Positions 9,242-33,367 are shown, counted from the first letter of the stretch. The stretch is DNA of 64,000 nt from Spirochaetota bacterium (GCA_013151965.1 JAADHF010000112.1:29668-93667), one strand, 5' to 3'. Numbers and translations: made by a program. The notes: generated from the letters alone by a model not told the origin.

Positions 9242-9249
9242 GATAAAAA

Positions 9250-9277
9250 CCTGGCCTGTACCGGCCGGGTTTTTTAT
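9250..9277 (+). terminator. Rho-independent terminator after the ferredoxin gene
   Basis: Stem CCTGGCC / GGCCGGG (7 bp, one G-U wobble), loop TGTACC, then T7. Confidence 0.5.
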
Positions 9278-9326: not shown

Positions 9327-10118
9327 ATGGAAGTAATCTTAACTGAAGACTATAATGAAATGAGTAAAATATCTGCCGGTGAAATTGCCAGACAGGTCAG
9401 AAAAAAGCCTAATTCGGTTATAGGCCTTGCTACAGGCAGTACTCCGCTCGGCACCTATAAAGAGCTCATCCGGCTTCATAAAGAGGAAGGGCTCGATTTT
9501 TCCAAGGTAATTACATTTAACCTGGATGAGTATCTCGGCCTTCCTCCGGCTCATAAGGAAAGTTATAACTTTTTTATGTGGGAAAATCTTTTTAAGCATA
9601 TAAATATAAACCCGGAAAATGTACATGTTCCGCAGGGAATGGTAGAAGATGCAGAGGAATTCTGTGAGTGGTACGAGAAAGAAATAGAAAAGGCCGGCGG
9701 CATAGACCTGCAGCTTTTAGGCATCGGGAGTGACGGACATATAGCATTTAACGAACCGGGATCATCCTTCGGAAGCCGGACCAGGGTTAAAACTCTGGAA
9801 GAACAGACTATCGAGGATAATTCCAGATTCTTTAACAGTATCGACGAGGTGCCCCACTTCGCAATCACCATGGGAGTGGGAACAATATTAGAAGCACGAA
9901 AAATCGTACTGGCTGCTAATGGTAAAAACAAGGCCCAGGTATGTGCCCGGTTTATAGAAGGACCGATTGATTCACAGATTACAGCTTCCGCTCTCCAGCT
10001 TCATCCTCATGCGGTTATAGTTCTGGATGAAGCTGCAAGCTCACAGCTTAAACGTAAAAAATACTACAACTGGATCCGGGACAACAAACACATGGTAAAA
10101 AAATATTTAGGCAGGTAG
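9327..10118 (+). CDS. nagB: Glucosamine-6-phosphate deaminase (short canonical form)
   Basis: VIGLATGSTP, FNLDEY and LLGIGSDGHIAFNEP are the NagB catalytic motifs. Length is 263 aa. Confidence 0.9.
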   Translation: MEVILTEDYNEMSKISAGEIARQVRKKPNSVIGLATGSTPLGTYKELIRLHKEEGLDFSKVITFNLDEYLGLPPAHKESYNFFMWENLFKHININPENVHVPQGMVEDAEEFCEWYEKEIEKAGGIDLQLLGIGSDGHIAFNEPGSSFGSRTRVKTLEEQTIEDNSRFFNSIDEVPHFAITMGVGTILEARKIVLAANGKNKAQVCARFIEGPIDSQITASALQLHPHAVIVLDEAASSQLKRKKYYNWIRDNKHMVKKYLGR

Positions 10119-10134
10119 ATTATAACAGACCTGT

Positions 10135-12051
10135 ATGAAAGATATAAAGGAAGAATTAAGCAGAATAATCGGCTCATCGAATTTTATCAGCAGTATAAGG
10201 GCAGTAAAAGAAAAAAGGGGAGAAAGCGTACTCTTCGGGGATTCCATACGGAAGCTTACCGAAGATGAGATAAAAATCCTTAAAGGTAACGGAAACTACT
10301 GTAATGACTGGTCTTTAATTGCGGTTGTTTATGATTTTAATCCGGGAAAAATCATAAACAGCCTCTTCTTCGGAAAATGTGTTTTGGGGAAATTTACCGG
10401 CGAAACAAGAGATGTTGCCGGAAGTATCTCTCTGCCCACAGGTATTTACAGAAGTACCATAATCAATTCGGAAATAGGAAATGAAGTATTTATTTTAGGA
10501 AACGGCAGTATATCCGGATACATAATAAAAAGCGGAGCTGCAGTTATTAATACGGTAAGTCTATCACATATTGCCGGCGGCTCCTTCGGTAATGGTCTGG
10601 AACTTGCAATCGGAATAGAAACGGGAGGCAGGGAAGTTCTTTCCTTTGCAGAATTGACAATAGATACCGCAGCACGCATTGCAACGGAGAGGGATAACGA
10701 ACAGGTACTCTCCGGCTATAACAGATCTGTTAAAGATTATACGGAAGCTGCAAAGAGCAGTTTCGGAGTGGTGGAAAAAAACGCACGGATATTGAATACA
10801 GTAAGAGTTGCAAATTCCTATATCGGTGATTATGCCGTTATAAATGGTGCGAATGTTATAGAAAATTCTACTATTTTAAGCGGCAGCGGAGAAGAAACAG
10901 AAATAAGCGGCGGAGCATATGTCAGAAATTCGTGTATCCAGTGGGGCTGTTCCGTATCGTCTATGGCAATCGTGGATAGTTCCGTATTAACGGAACATTC
11001 ACATGTGGAGCGCCATGGAAAAGTAACAGAAAGCATCATAGGCCCCAATACCGAAATTGCAGAGGGTGAAGTAACTTCATGTATAGTAGGGCCCTTTGTT
11101 GGTTTTCATCATCAGTCGCTTCTTATTGCCGCAATATGGCCGGAAGGCAGAGGGAATGTCGGATACGGTGCCAATGTCGGTTCCAATCATACATCAAAAG
11201 CACCTGACCAGGAAATCTTCTGCGGGGAAGGAACTTTTTTCGGACTTGGTGTAAATATTAAGTTTCCCTCCGATTTTTCCGCAGCACCTTACAGTATCAT
11301 AGCGACAGGGGTAAGCACACTTCCGCAGAAGGTAGAATTCCCTTTTTCTCTCATTAATGAACCTGCCGCTCATTTTCCCGGCATATCACCGGCATATAAC
11401 GAAATATTCCCTGCATGGGTTCTGTCCGACAATATCTATATGATAAGGCGTAATGAAGGAAAATACAGAAAACGAAATAAGGCAAAACGGACGCAATTTA
11501 TTTATGATGTTTTCAGACCGGATATTATAGACAGGATGATACGTGCACGGGAAACGCTTCTGTCTGTCCGGATAAAAAAGGATATCTATCTGGATAAGGA
11601 TATCAGGGGAATAGGAAAAAACTTTCTTCTGGAGAAAAACAGGGTCAAAGCAATAGAGACTTACTCATACTATATACGGTACTATGCCCTTTCCGGCATA
11701 AAAAAAATGATAGATAAAATAATCGGCAGCGGGAGAAAAATCAGGGAAAGCATGCTGCACGATAAACTTCCGGAAAACAAAAGATGGGAACATGAGCATA
11801 AGATTCTCTGCAAAGAGGGACTGGCAGATAACGGCATTAAAGAAAACCTTAAACTGCTGCTCGAAATGGAGGAAAAAATTGCACGCTCCACCGGGGAATC
11901 CAAGGCAAAGGATGATAAAAGGGGAAAAAGAATAATAAAAGACTACACTGCCGCACATAAACCGGCTGAAGAAGACAGTTTTGTTATCGAAACATGGAAA
12001 AAATATCATAATCTTAGAAAAGAGATAGAAAGCTATGAATTCTGCAGTTGA
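10135..12051 (+). CDS. DUF4954-like protein with a left-handed beta-helix (hexapeptide-repeat) core and a C-terminal helical domain
   Basis: Hexapeptide-like periodicity runs over about 250 aa (IGDYAVINGANVIENSTILSG...IIGPNTEIAEGEVTSCIVGPFVG...VGYGANVGSNHT). The downstream gene overlaps it by 17 nt. Confidence 0.6.
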   Translation: MKDIKEELSRIIGSSNFISSIRAVKEKRGESVLFGDSIRKLTEDEIKILKGNGNYCNDWSLIAVVYDFNPGKIINSLFFGKCVLGKFTGETRDVAGSISLPTGIYRSTIINSEIGNEVFILGNGSISGYIIKSGAAVINTVSLSHIAGGSFGNGLELAIGIETGGREVLSFAELTIDTAARIATERDNEQVLSGYNRSVKDYTEAAKSSFGVVEKNARILNTVRVANSYIGDYAVINGANVIENSTILSGSGEETEISGGAYVRNSCIQWGCSVSSMAIVDSSVLTEHSHVERHGKVTESIIGPNTEIAEGEVTSCIVGPFVGFHHQSLLIAAIWPEGRGNVGYGANVGSNHTSKAPDQEIFCGEGTFFGLGVNIKFPSDFSAAPYSIIATGVSTLPQKVEFPFSLINEPAAHFPGISPAYNEIFPAWVLSDNIYMIRRNEGKYRKRNKAKRTQFIYDVFRPDIIDRMIRARETLLSVRIKKDIYLDKDIRGIGKNFLLEKNRVKAIETYSYYIRYYALSGIKKMIDKIIGSGRKIRESMLHDKLPENKRWEHEHKILCKEGLADNGIKENLKLLLEMEEKIARSTGESKAKDDKRGKRIIKDYTAAHKPAEEDSFVIETWKKYHNLRKEIESYEFCS

Positions 12052-14368
12052 AATCAGGGCACTTGAAAAATCAGGGCATAAACTTAAGTACAGTCCGACA
12101 GAAAAAACAGGTGTTATAACGGTAGATAATTTTCCCGAACTGGGAACATTAACAGCATTAAGATTCTTGGAATGGGTGCAGAAAAACCCGGGCGGTGTAG
12201 TATCCCTGCCTACAGGCAAAACCCCCGAGTATTTTATAAAAGAGGTCAGAAGGTTAAAAGAAGGCTGGGAAAGCAGCTCCGTAAAAAAAGAACTCGAAAA
12301 CCGGGGAATAGACCCGTCTGTAAAACCGGACTTTAAAAGCCTCTGCTTTGTTCAGATAGATGAATTCTACCCGATAAGCCCTCTGCAGCATAACAGTTTT
12401 TACTACTATGTCAATGAGTTCTACATTAACGGTTTCGGACTCGATCCCGGAAAAGCTCTTCTTATAAACTGCAGCGAAATAGGCCTTCCCGAAGGAAAAC
12501 AGATGGAAGACATCTGGCCGGCGGGTAAAGTAGATCTGTCTCTGCGCTGCCGGGCTCCGGAAAGCAAAACGGAAATTCTGCAGAAGGAAACACTGTACAA
12601 AATAGACCAATGGTGCGTCGAGTACGAAAACAAAATACGTTCGTCAGGCGGAATAGGTTTTTTCTTAGGAGGCATAGGCCCTGACGGCCATATAGGATTT
12701 AATGTCCGCGGGTCGGATTTCTACTCCACAACACGTCTCGCCGGAACAAATTACGAAACACAGGCGGCTGCAGCTACCGACTTAGGCGGAATAGAAGTTG
12801 CCAGAAACCGGCTTGTCATTACCATCGGGCTTTCCACAATCACTTTTAACCCTGAATGTACTGCCATAATCATTGCAGCAGGAGACGCCAAAGCTAAAGT
12901 TATTGCAGATGCAGTTCAGAATAAAATGAATGTGGTATATCCTGCCACTGTCCTTCAGAAATTACCCAATGCACGTTTTTTCTTAACCAGGGGTGCATCC
13001 GGACTTTTAATAGAACGCAATGTAAAGTCATTCACCGAAAAAAGAGAACCGAAAACAGATGAAATAGAAAAAATCATAATCGACCTTTCCGCAGAAAAGG
13101 GCAAACCGGTCTCACAGCTTGTTCCCGAAGATTATAATGCTAATTCTCTGGCAAAAGCTCTATACAGAAGATATCCGGAAAAAATAAAAACATTTCAGGA
13201 TCGGACAATACAGGACCTTAAAGCTAAAATCGCACGGGGAACAAAAATAAACAGCGGCAGGGTATTCCTCCATACCGAACCGCACCATGATGATCTGATG
13301 CTCGGCTACCTTCCGTTTATAGTACGTCATATAAGAGACCACAGCACGCGGCACTACTTTACAACCCTGACAAGCGGTTTTACATCGGTTACCAATAAAT
13401 TCATGCTGAATCAATTAAAAAATCTCAAAGAATACATTAAAAAGGGATACTTTAACCGGCTATTCCGAACTAATTACTTCGATTCTGATAACGTCGAGGG
13501 GAAAAACAGGGATGTATGGCAGTACTTAGACGGTGTTGCTGCAGACTCGGAAGACATGAAACATGAGGGAGAATTAAGGCGTCTTACACGGAATCTTATC
13601 CATATATTCAATGAAAAGGAACTGCAGCAACTTGAGTACCGGATAGACGAACTTATAAACTATTTTAACACGCAATACCCGGGGAAAAAGGATATTCGGC
13701 ACATTCAGCTCTTAAAAGGGATGAGCAGGGAGTGGGAAGCAGACTGCCTCTGGGGATATTTCGGCTGGCATTCGGATTCTATTTTTCATTTAAGATTAAG
13801 CTTTTACAGGGGTGATATCTTTACAGAGGAACCTACCGTAGAGGGTGATGTAACCCCTGTCCTTAATCTTTTAAAAAAGATTAATCCGGATATTGTTACA
13901 GTGGCATTCGATCCGGAGGCAAGCGGACCGGACACTCACTACAAGGTACTCCAGGCGGTTACGGAAGCCTTAAAGCTTTACGAAAAGGAATCCGGCCGTT
14001 CCGATATAGAAATAATCGGCTACAGAAATATCTGGTACCGGTTCCACCCCTCGGAAGCGGACATCTTCGTGCCCGTTTCGCTTAATATGTTTTCTCTCCA
14101 GTCCAATGCCTTTTTAAACTCCTTTATAACTCAAAAAACCGCCTCTTTCCCCAGTTACCTTCATGACGGGCCGTTTTCCGAACTGGCTCAGAAGATACAG
14201 GTAGAACAGTACCAGACGCTTAAAACCTGTCTCGGAAGAGATTTTTTTAACAATCACAGAGTTGCACTTATGCGTGCAACACGGGGAATGGTATTCCTGA
14301 AGAAGATGAGTTTAACGGAATTTTACCGGTACTCACGGGAGCTGAAAAAGGGAACAGAGAATAGATAG
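12035..14368 (+). CDS. Fusion protein: NagB-like sugar-phosphate isomerase/deaminase domain (N-terminus) plus PIG-L/LmbE-family N-acetylglucosaminyl deacetylase-like domain (C-terminus)
   Basis: The N-terminus has SLPTGKTP, FVQIDEF and GGIGPDGHIGFN, which are NagB motifs. The C-terminus has HTEPHHDDLMLGY (the PIG-L PHxDD motif), with further H/D residues downstream. Length is 777 aa. Confidence 0.7.
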   Translation: MNSAVEIRALEKSGHKLKYSPTEKTGVITVDNFPELGTLTALRFLEWVQKNPGGVVSLPTGKTPEYFIKEVRRLKEGWESSSVKKELENRGIDPSVKPDFKSLCFVQIDEFYPISPLQHNSFYYYVNEFYINGFGLDPGKALLINCSEIGLPEGKQMEDIWPAGKVDLSLRCRAPESKTEILQKETLYKIDQWCVEYENKIRSSGGIGFFLGGIGPDGHIGFNVRGSDFYSTTRLAGTNYETQAAAATDLGGIEVARNRLVITIGLSTITFNPECTAIIIAAGDAKAKVIADAVQNKMNVVYPATVLQKLPNARFFLTRGASGLLIERNVKSFTEKREPKTDEIEKIIIDLSAEKGKPVSQLVPEDYNANSLAKALYRRYPEKIKTFQDRTIQDLKAKIARGTKINSGRVFLHTEPHHDDLMLGYLPFIVRHIRDHSTRHYFTTLTSGFTSVTNKFMLNQLKNLKEYIKKGYFNRLFRTNYFDSDNVEGKNRDVWQYLDGVAADSEDMKHEGELRRLTRNLIHIFNEKELQQLEYRIDELINYFNTQYPGKKDIRHIQLLKGMSREWEADCLWGYFGWHSDSIFHLRLSFYRGDIFTEEPTVEGDVTPVLNLLKKINPDIVTVAFDPEASGPDTHYKVLQAVTEALKLYEKESGRSDIEIIGYRNIWYRFHPSEADIFVPVSLNMFSLQSNAFLNSFITQKTASFPSYLHDGPFSELAQKIQVEQYQTLKTCLGRDFFNNHRVALMRATRGMVFLKKMSLTEFYRYSRELKKGTENR

Positions 14369-14383
14369 CATAATCTTCTGCAG

Positions 14384-14686
14384 CTATCTGGGTATTCTCT
14401 TTCGCACAATTACCGTAATAAAGGCAAAGATAAAGAAGATCATCGGAAGAACAGACAACAACAGCTTAAGGGCGGGAACTCCGTAAAGAGTAATTACTAT
14501 ATTGCCGGTAATACCGAATATTTCAAGTGTCGTATATACAATATTTATATACTGCACGATAGTTCCTATTATTACAAATATCCAGGCGATATCCCGGGTT
14601 TTCGACCAGAGTAAAACTGCAAAAAAGGTGGCAATGCCGCCCACTGCAACCTTTGAAATAATCAATACGAAATCAGCAAATTCCAT
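14384..14686 (-). CDS. Small membrane protein (three TM helices)
   Basis: Hydrophobic 100-aa ORF, 4 nt downstream of the HemL-like gene on the same strand. Confidence 0.4.
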   Translation of the reverse strand: MEFADFVLIISKVAVGGIATFFAVLLWSKTRDIAWIFVIIGTIVQYINIVYTTLEIFGITGNIVITLYGVPALKLLLSVLPMIFFIFAFITVIVRKRIPR

Positions 14687-14689
14687 TCT

Positions 14690-15523
14690 CTACTTTCCGT
14701 TTATAACTTTTAAAAGTCCGATTATCTTTTTCCGTTCCCCGTCCGAGAGCCCTCCGGGCATAATTGTAGGACCCGGGAAACAGGGAGATATAATTACCCC
14801 TTCAGCCAAAAACTTTTTAAATACGTTTTCGTACTCTGAAATACTGCACTCGGCTTTAAGGTAGATACCCTCCCTCTTCCAGATATTAAACGACTTAGGC
14901 AGCGAAAGGTCAACCCAGTCCGGTATTTTATAATGTTTTAGCCGGTACATCACATGAATAACACCGGCTAAAAGAACTGGAGAAACAGTATCCGAAGCAG
15001 GCAGTACATCCGCGGCCTTATCTTTAGAATCTTTAAAGCACAGTACCGCCGGAGAACCGCCGGCTGCAAAAGGGAAAAGGGGAACGAGCATTTTGTATTT
15101 CTTATAAAAAGTACTGTCCGTAAAGGGCCGCCAGTATGCGGCTTTATAACTTTTATCATCAGGGCCGCCGGCCGAAATCAGTACGGGATCCGTAATATCC
15201 TCTGCAGTTATACTCCCGCCGGATAACAAAGAAATATCCTTTAAAACTCTTTCAAAAGACCTTCTTATTCTAAATGTACTGTAAGCGGGAAATATTGTGA
15301 TAAGAAGTCTTATTAACCTCTTTTCATAAACCGAAGGAAAATCGTACAGCAGCCCTTTGGAAAGAGTATTCTTTAGTGTCCTTGAAAGTTTTTCCGCCCT
15401 GTGACCCAGGAGTGCATGCCCGTTATTCTGATAACAGTCTATATACCTTCTGCCTGTGCAGCCATACAATCTATAGTCCCTGGCTCTTTTGATTTCAGGG
15501 ATAAGTTTATTAAGGTCTATCAA
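14690..15523 (-). CDS. Short, apparently degenerate class-III aminotransferase-like (HemL-like) protein
   Basis: The N-terminus RARDYRLYGCTGRRYIDCYQNNGHALLGH parallels the HemL/AT-III motif DxDGxxYIDxxxGxxxxLGH. The C-terminus EGVIISPCFPG parallels HemL EGVYLAPSQFE. The protein is only 277 aa, and the region aligning to the PLP-lysine loop reads LVPLFPFAAGGSP, with no Lys. Confidence 0.4.
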   Translation of the reverse strand: MIDLNKLIPEIKRARDYRLYGCTGRRYIDCYQNNGHALLGHRAEKLSRTLKNTLSKGLLYDFPSVYEKRLIRLLITIFPAYSTFRIRRSFERVLKDISLLSGGSITAEDITDPVLISAGGPDDKSYKAAYWRPFTDSTFYKKYKMLVPLFPFAAGGSPAVLCFKDSKDKAADVLPASDTVSPVLLAGVIHVMYRLKHYKIPDWVDLSLPKSFNIWKREGIYLKAECSISEYENVFKKFLAEGVIISPCFPGPTIMPGGLSDGERKKIIGLLKVINGK

Positions 15524-33282: not shown

Positions 33283-33367
33283 GCCGGCGTGATGAAATTG
33301 GTAGACGTGCCAGACTCAAAATCTGGTGGGCCTTGCGCCCGTGTCGGTTCGACTCCGACCGCCGGCA
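33283..33367 (+). tRNA. tRNA-Leu (anticodon CAA)
   Basis: The acceptor stem is GCCGGCG / CGCCGGC. The anticodon stem-loop CCAGA-CTCAAAA-TCTGG gives anticodon CAA. There is a long variable arm, a T-arm GGTTCGACTCC and discriminator A. No CCA is encoded. Confidence 0.85.

Follow-up and report, generated by a model that had tools for sequence, protein, structure and literature searches.

A NagB-like/LmbE-like fusion protein from a Spirochaetota bacterium: member of a widespread family and probable additional enzyme of amino-sugar metabolism

In a stretch of 64,000 nucleotides from a Spirochaetota bacterium (GCA_013151965.1, JAADHF010000112.1:29668-93667; the whole stretch is termed the window in the following), an ATG-started open reading frame (ORF) at positions 12035 to 14368 of the plus strand encodes a single polypeptide of 777 amino acids, in which an N-terminal half resembling glucosamine-6-phosphate deaminase (NagB) is joined to a C-terminal half of the LmbE/PIG-L superfamily. 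The catalytic residues characteristic of both enzyme types are retained, and we lean towards a bifunctional enzyme, the LmbE half of which would perform metal-dependent de-N-acetylation and the NagB-like half of which would isomerise and deaminate a hexosamine 6-phosphate. The fusion is probably an extra amino-sugar enzyme that acts beside NagA and NagB, and not a simple NagA replacement.

Two enzyme halves in one polypeptide

The reading frame is a real gene. A 100% identical protein of 777 residues, stemming from a metagenome-assembled genome (MAG) of the Spirochaetes, is present in the NCBI database, and the N-terminus is conserved among homologues. Upon inspection of the sequence, this N-terminus does not have the character of a signal peptide, and a cytoplasmic location of the fusion enzyme is the best explanation. 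An earlier interpretation of the window, here termed the sequence-only reading, had postulated the fusion on the basis of four motifs, all of which are present in the 777-residue protein (SLPTGKTP at residue 57, FVQIDEF at residue 105, GGIGPDGHIGFN at residue 212 and HTEPHHDD at residue 413). The presence of a NagB-type and a PIG-L/LmbE-type domain on one polypeptide is borne out by the ORF, the motifs and by profile as well as fold matches. The gene and its parts are the following (window positions, with the basis of each assignment in brackets):

12035-14368, plus strand: fusion gene, complete, NagB-like/LmbE-like (ORF list; identical NCBI protein; conserved N-terminus)
12035-13039, plus strand: NagB-fold domain, residues 1-335 (Foldseek match to 3hn6; phmmer; tblastn)
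12203-12226, plus strand: SLPTGKTP loop, residues 57-64, corresponding to the phosphate-binding loop GLPTGGTP of Escherichia coli NagB (alignment to the verified E. coli sequence)
12347-12367, plus strand: FVQIDEF, residues 105-111, with D109 as the counterpart of Asp72, the catalytic base in E. coli NagB (alignment)
12440-12604, plus strand: family-specific insertion of about 55 residues, residues 136-190, without counterpart in canonical NagB (alignment to the NagB proteins of the window and of E. coli)
12668-12703, plus strand: GGIGPDGHIGFN, residues 212-223, with D217 and H219 corresponding to Asp141 and His143 of E. coli NagB (alignment)
12701-12805, plus strand: lid region, residues 223-257, family signature NYETQAAAAxDLGG (alignment, residue census)
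13040-13249, plus strand: helical linker, residues 336-405 (helices 341-403 of the structural model; low conservation)
13250-14365, plus strand: LmbE/PIG-L-fold domain, residues 406-777 (fold and profile evidence)
13271-13294, plus strand: HTEPHHDD, residues 413-420, with H417 and D420 as putative zinc ligands and D419 as putative general base, equivalent to H13, D16 and D15 of MshB (profile alignment to PHPDD of Dac)
13394-13774, plus strand: helical insertion of about 125 residues, residues 454-580, without counterpart in solved LmbE enzymes (model helices; residue census)
13910-13939, plus strand: DPEASGPDTH, residues 626-635, with H635 as putative third zinc ligand, equivalent to His147 of MshB (hhalign)

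The assignment of the N-terminal half to the NagB type is supported by sequence as well as by fold. When the full-length AlphaFold model (predicted local distance difference test score, pLDDT, 86.3; predicted template modelling score, pTM, 0.85) was compared with the PDB using Foldseek, NagB from Borrelia (3hn6) was retrieved with an E value of 2.2e-12, and NagB chains reached template modelling scores, normalized to the target, of 0.71-0.83. On the sequence level, phmmer matched 3hn6 over residues 190-325 (E value 4e-17) and tblastn revealed 27% identity with the window's own NagB (E value 1.5e-15). Scores on curated families stay below the respective cutoffs, with 91.1 bits on TIGR00502 (cutoff 236.9) and 14.8 bits on PF01182 (Glucosamine_iso, cutoff 27), the latter only when the N-terminal half was scanned alone, and Pfam scans of the whole protein and of each half returned nothing at gathering score.

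For residue assignments the sequence of E. coli NagB, verified to be identical to 1cd5, was used, and conservation was followed in a close set of 120 homologues and in a diverse set of 66 fused representatives sharing pairwise identities of at most 50%. The alignment confirmed that the NagB catalytic residues, represented by D109, D217 and H219, have been kept, and it placed K286 at the position of the phosphate ligand Lys208. These four residues are invariant in the close set, as are P59, T60 and G61 of the SLPTGKTP loop, and among the diverse fused representatives they were found in 49 of 60 (D109), 59 of 66 (D217), 57 of 66 (H219) and 57 of 66 cases (K286). The larger insertion in the NagB-like half carries residues of its own that are invariant (W161, D167, L170 and R171) or nearly so (R173), and a second, smaller insertion comprises residues 76-98.

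For the C-terminal half Pfam is blind, and profile and fold evidence is therefore needed. The fusion protein does not match PF02585 (PIG-L) even at an E value threshold of 10, phmmer with the whole protein against the PDB yielded NagB matches only and none for the C-terminal half, and a phmmer search with this half against 1.84 billion representatives led to only 509 clusters and to no canonical PIG-L protein. The clusters include fused forms (about 580-1,060 residues) and apparently stand-alone forms (350-480 residues), some of which are possibly fragments. Membership of the C-terminal half in the LmbE/PIG-L superfamily is nevertheless established. Four relatives (P0150, P0186, P0262 and P0226) exceed the PF02585 gathering score (28.6-34.9 bits vs. 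28.2), and a family profile built from 27 sequences matches the diacetylchitobiose deacetylase from Pyrococcus (E value 3.6e-4) such that LHTaPHhDD is aligned with LCIEPHPDD. The full model matched LmbE-fold chains, i.e., LnmX, teicoplanin deacetylase, Dac and GalB, in Foldseek comparisons; the models behind these fold matches have pLDDT values of 86.3 and 93.7, and the C-terminal half exhibits the LmbE-like Rossmann fold. As the same fold also hosts the hydratase GalB, deacetylase activity is something that we infer.

The putative zinc triad (H417, D420 and H635) and the neighboring catalytic aspartate (D419), the presence of which was a prerequisite of the sequence-only reading, are all conserved. 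Among the diverse fused relatives, H417 was found in 63 of 66, D419 and D420 each in 65 of 66 and H635 in 62 of 64 sequences, and in a further alignment H635 is invariant. The equivalence of H635 and His147 stems from an hhalign comparison of the family profile with the single MshB sequence (verified to be identical to 1q74), which covers 36 columns at a probability of 11% and was used only alongside residue invariance. Within the helical insertion of the LmbE half K561, G562, R565, E566 and E568, all located in the segment LKGMxREWEADC, are invariant, and the remaining positions of this segment are near-invariant. On both sides of the linker, the catalytic residues are under purifying selection in the diverse set of 66 representatives.

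A widespread family and its known relatives

The fusion architecture of the window protein is already known; the protein represents an ordinary case of it and not a new kind of system. A homologue search with the 777-residue query in the NCBI protein database returned 6,886 of 8,000 scored candidates at E values of at most 1e-3, and the 120 best listed homologues, mostly 770-800 residues long (one has 887), are 62-100% identical to the query. At least 588 relatives were confirmed by a pattern scan of species-representative genomes. The best 80 of these share 55-65% identity with the fusion protein and are distributed over Spirochaetota, Bacteroidota, KSB1, Calditrichota, Ignavibacteria, Latescibacterota, Gemmatimonadota, Planctomycetota, Armatimonadota, Omnitrophota and WOR-3. 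In databases, members of the family carry the names "glucosamine-6-phosphate deaminase" or "hypothetical protein."

The same domain layout, a NagB-like N-terminal half followed by a homologous C-terminal half, is present in PRK02122 (NCBIfam NF002557, 'glucosamine-6-phosphate deaminase-like protein'), a type of approximately 650 residues from Bacteroidota. PRK02122 is the best NCBIfam match of the fusion protein, which aligns to the 653-position profile in two stretches. However, the score of 198.8 bits stays below the cutoff of 384, so that the fusion protein is not a member and its family is best described as a sister group; the same holds for the scores of nine diverse fused representatives. 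The N-terminal half of PRK02122 is close to canonical NagB, to the extent that the window's real NagB attains 293 bits on this profile, whereas the 777-residue family deviates by its two insertions and a different lid. PRK02122 is likewise annotated by similarity only. It presumably includes the Swiss-Prot entry 'Putative glucosamine-6-phosphate deaminase-like protein BT_0258,' which we take to be a long fused form. A paper from 2026 lists the fusion as 'nagB-PIGL' (PMC13198582). BT_0258 and BT_3587 from Bacteroides thetaiotaomicron, annotated as glucosamine-6-phosphate deaminase isozymes, were induced in a study of mucin utilization and their knock-downs were neutral; BT_3588, numbered next to BT_3587, is annotated as nagA (PMC13634575). 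In the chitin locus of Flavobacterium johnsoniae, a 'NagB' of unverified domain layout is described in the literature as unexpressed and without phenotype.

With canonical NagB (E. coli 1dea/1cd5, Bacillus subtilis 2bkv, Borrelia 3hn6) the fusion shares the fold, the equivalents of Asp72, Asp141, His143 and Lys208 and the PTGxTP loop. It differs from these enzymes by an identity of only 19-28%, by the replacement of Glu148 by Val, Ile or Met, by variability at the position of Arg172, by another lid, by the two insertions and by the presence of a second domain. As regards the LmbE/PIG-L zinc de-N-acetylases (BC1534, 2ixd; Dac, 3we7 and 8bgo; MshB, 1q74; TT1542; LnmX), only approximately 200-219 of 385 residues can be aligned to LmbE structures, and identity is 12-17%; in addition to the lack of a PF02585 match, the fusion is set apart from them by the helical insertion with its own invariant residues, by a proline in place of His144 of MshB and by the NagB-like partner domain. 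NagA (TIGR00221, amidohydrolase superfamily) performs the chemistry proposed here for the LmbE half, i.e., metal-dependent removal of the N-acetyl group, and occurs in common gene neighborhoods with the fusion. Its fold, however, is unrelated, and neither Pfam nor NCBIfam nor Foldseek revealed any NagA or Amidohydro match for the fusion protein.

Gene neighborhoods and the question of the substrate

In the window, the fusion gene comes third and last in a row of genes that share one orientation. The elements upstream of it are:

9245-9274, plus strand: strong terminator-like hairpin followed by a T-run, between a yccA/Bax1-I gene and nagB (12-bp stem with six GC pairs; consensus match only)
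9327-10118, plus strand: canonical nagB, 263 residues, first gene of an apparent three-gene unit (TIGR00502, 327.9 bits vs. cutoff 236.9)
10135-12051, plus strand: DUF4954 gene, left-handed beta-helix repeats (PF16314, 186 bits)

The start of the fusion gene overlaps the stop of the DUF4954 gene by 17 nucleotides, and these two genes are likely translationally coupled. Together with nagB they form an apparent operon, and the hairpin at 9245-9274 likely marks the start of this unit. Homologues of nagA, ROK, GH20, GH109, NahK and SSS genes were searched for and not found in the window.

For the relatives, we evaluated approximately 85 loci (designated by L numbers) with flanks of up to 10 kb, clustering the ORFs and counting homologues by tblastn. 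About 34 of the 85 loci contain at least one amino-sugar-related gene, in some cases only DUF4954 or a GalE-like epimerase. Canonical nagB was found in 12 loci (in L053 immediately at the 5' end of the fusion gene), DUF4954 in eight, and true nagA in four, in three of which (L003, L010 and L017) it is the direct neighbor; the divergent nagA of L003 scores 316 bits on TIGR00221 (cutoff 225.65). In seven loci from Spirochaetaceae (L043, L052, L056, L060, L063, L064 and L075), all devoid of nagA and nagB within the flanks, a helix-turn-helix (HTH) ROK regulator gene overlaps or abuts the 3' end of the fusion gene, and in six of them a ROK kinase gene is next. Genes for glycoside hydrolases (GH) recur as well, with GH109-like genes adjacent to the fusion gene in L047, L066, L069 and L071 and GH20 in three loci. 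NahK-like kinases and 3pnn-like nucleotidyltransferases occur in three loci each, and AnmK in two, following the fusion gene in L006. The nucleotidyltransferase genes situated after the fusion gene in L069 and L071 match 3pnn with an E value of 1.7e-92. An MFS-HEAT transporter gene follows in L003, L009 and L011 and a DUF4922 gene in L017, and in L035 a GalK-like kinase and a GH2 gene flank the fusion gene. In two loci, L042 (8839-9984, Latescibacterota MAG) and L049 (4301-5485, Gemmatimonadota MAG), the fusion gene shares its 5' end with an overlapping gene for acetate kinase, which would fit recovery of acetate that a deacetylase has set free. In L066 the order is sulfatase, an ORF with an N_methyl motif and a divergent AraC-like gene, GH109, fusion, GH20, NahK-like kinase, SSS transporter and GH29, followed at some distance by GH2, and the kinase is related to N-acetylhexosamine 1-kinase 4wh1 (E value 7e-70). 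Taken as a whole, gene context supports a placement of the family in N-acetylhexosamine metabolism.

The sequence-only reading had gone a step further and proposed that the fusion converts N-acetylglucosamine 6-phosphate (GlcNAc-6-P) to glucosamine 6-phosphate (GlcN-6-P) in its LmbE half and then to fructose 6-phosphate in its NagB-like half, thereby replacing NagA as well as NagB. What speaks for such a bypass is the retention of both catalytic sets and the composition of the seven ROK-type loci, which fit a self-contained set for kinase, deacetylase and deaminase reactions, the kinase being present in six; the combination of GH109, fusion, GH20, kinase and transporter genes without nagA and nagB in L066 agrees with it, too. 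On the other hand, true nagA lies adjacent in L003, L010 and L017, where NagA and the fusion coexist without one excluding the other, and a bona fide nagB is located in the same unit upstream of the fusion gene in the window and nearby in 11 other loci. To our knowledge, no LmbE-family enzyme (MshB, BshB, PIG-L, Dac) uses a 6-phosphorylated substrate, which likewise speaks against the bypass. The idea of a NagA bypass is thus weakened though not refuted, and we consider it unlikely in this form.

Alternatively, the LmbE half could act in the manner of Dac and deacetylate free GlcNAc or chitobiose as in the chitin pathway of Thermococcales, the product being phosphorylated to GlcN-6-P by a neighboring kinase and then deaminated by the NagB-like half. 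This appears improbable, as the similarity to Dac is limited to the shared fold and motif at 12-17% identity and an exo-glucosaminidase was not seen near the fusion orthologues. In addition, the large conserved insertion is rich in Arg/Lys (K561, R565) and may hint at an anionic substrate, although we infer this from its composition.

Another set of neighbors directs attention to substrates substituted at the anomeric carbon in alpha configuration, in analogy to MshB, BshB and PIG-L, which act on alpha-1-linked substrates. The LmbE half might then deacetylate N-acetylhexosamine (HexNAc) 1-phosphate or UDP-HexNAc derived from GlcNAc or N-acetylgalactosamine, and glucosamine 1-phosphate would reach the NagB-like half after conversion to GlcN-6-P by GlmM. 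The NahK-like kinase, the 3pnn-like nucleotidyltransferase and the GalE-like epimerase handle anomeric phosphates or nucleotide sugars, and the list can be extended by the GalK-like GHMP kinase, the GalT-like DUF4922 protein and DUF4954, with its similarity to domains at the C-terminus of sugar nucleotidyltransferases. Each of these genes is, however, present in only one to eight of the approximately 85 loci, and the fusion would unite two activities that do not follow each other directly in the route. We rate this possibility, which was reached by analogy, as improbable. If true, it would link a Leloir-like salvage of HexNAc to glycolysis via GlmM and the fused deaminase, and it would fill an unexplained step in HexNAc-1-phosphate catabolism in bacteria without GlcNAc-phosphate mutase.

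A universally conserved operon partner had been considered and was rejected, as the immediate neighbors differ in most of the loci. Several individual neighborhoods may be mentioned in addition. The region 4697-22322 of L066, from a Sedimentisphaerales MAG, constitutes a compact glycan-utilization cluster, in which GH29 is a fucosidase, and looks like a locus for mucin-like or sulfated glycans in Planctomycetota. In L002 and L005, both from KSB1 MAGs, genes for an M20 peptidase and a DUF1611 protein are located a few kb downstream, L002 containing also a gene of the MR_MLE dipeptide-epimerase type, and these neighbors may hint at recycling of cell-wall peptides. DUF4954 (PF16314) occurs near canonical nagB in eight loci from several phyla and is adjacent to it in the loci inspected. 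Its beta-helix repeats resemble the C-termini of GlmU, GMPPB and GlgC, and no homologue of the window's DUF4954 protein was detected in the PDB. Treponema pallidum, whose genome is reduced, has kept the gene as well (PMC6953169), and DUF4954 may be as interesting as the fusion protein itself. Downstream of the fusion gene, on the minus strand, the window contains a gene for a membrane protein of 100 residues (14384-14686) and beside it a HemL-like remnant of 277 residues (14690-15523), which reaches only 34 bits on TIGR00713 and matches HemL residues 34-109. A similar pair, an ORF of about 100 residues and a weak class-III aminotransferase of 354-388 residues, resides beside the fusion orthologues in L001 and L004, and the small ORF matches the TP_0679 family in L001 only. 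The HemL-like pair is a conserved, degenerate aminotransferase. At gathering score, Rfam yields a single match in the window, a tRNA gene (33283-33367, plus strand).

Proposed function and its implications

In the bifunctional enzyme that we favor, the following sequence of events is conceivable. The fusion gene would be transcribed together with canonical nagB and the DUF4954 gene, and the LmbE-type domain of the protein would bind a metal, most likely zinc, via H417, D420 and H635. With D419 acting as general base, an N-acetylhexosamine derivative would be hydrolyzed at its N-acetyl group and acetate released. In the NagB-type domain, H219 and D217 would then open the ring and D109 would serve as the base, and the resulting hexosamine 6-phosphate would be isomerized and deaminated to a ketose 6-phosphate and ammonia.

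A number of observations weigh against this assignment. In E. coli NagB, Glu148 is part of a His-Glu dyad and Arg172 is a residue of the lid and a ligand of the phosphate group. In the fusion protein, V224, which directly follows GGIGPDGHIGFN, takes the place of Glu148, and across 67 fused sequences this position is occupied by I, M, V, L, C, Q and others and never by Glu. The position of Arg172 is held by T248 and varies across the fused sequences. The lid is unlike that of NagB and was modeled with low confidence (pLDDT below 50 at residues 223-229 and 233-257). The divergence from canonical NagB noted in the sequence-only reading is therefore real and family-wide, and with both residues lost and the lid poorly modeled the deaminase half may be slow, altered or inactive. 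The replacements are also unlike an unchanged GlcN-6-P site and thus add to the points against the bypass. In the LmbE half, P632, a proline shared by 62 of 66 relatives, stands at the place of His144 of MshB, the second active-site His of the HxDH motif. Most loci are without a conserved partner gene, and in the literature searched we found no characterized orthologue, be it with an unrelated activity or with any other, and no biochemical characterization or assay of any family member. Finally, about ten fused relatives (P0164, P0184, P0198, P0214-P0216, P0220, P0229, P0230 and P0236) are devoid of the NagB-type catalytic Asp and His and have kept the LmbE zinc motif, which makes the LmbE half look like the constant functional core and indicates that the N-terminal half can become non-catalytic.

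This last group would be the starting point for regarding one half as non-catalytic or changed throughout the family, the NagB-like domain serving as a module for sugar-phosphate binding or regulation or the LmbE half catalyzing a reaction other than deacetylation, e.g., hydration. In the 120 closest homologues D109, D217, H219 and K286 are invariant, however, and in the diverse fused set, sequences with a gap at the respective position being disregarded, retention amounts to about 82-89%. Such retention is not expected of a pseudo-enzyme, and we deem a non-catalytic half highly improbable. For the bifunctional enzyme, the replacement of Glu148 and Arg172, the family-specific lid, the large insertion in the LmbE half and the frequent presence of nagA and nagB within 10 kb imply that it most likely acts beside NagA and NagB in a related, non-identical route or on such a substrate, and is no simple substitute for NagA.

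The family is widespread, with at least 588 matches in more than ten phyla, it is unusually conserved between phyla (55-65% identity), and its members are routinely labeled just "glucosamine-6-phosphate deaminase." Should both halves be active, many genome-based reconstructions of amino-sugar metabolism from chitin, mucin or peptidoglycan would miss a deacetylase and possibly a whole parallel route, and the NagB label alone may mislead inferences on the presence or absence of nagA. A few enzyme assays could assign a function to thousands of genes that are now called NagB.

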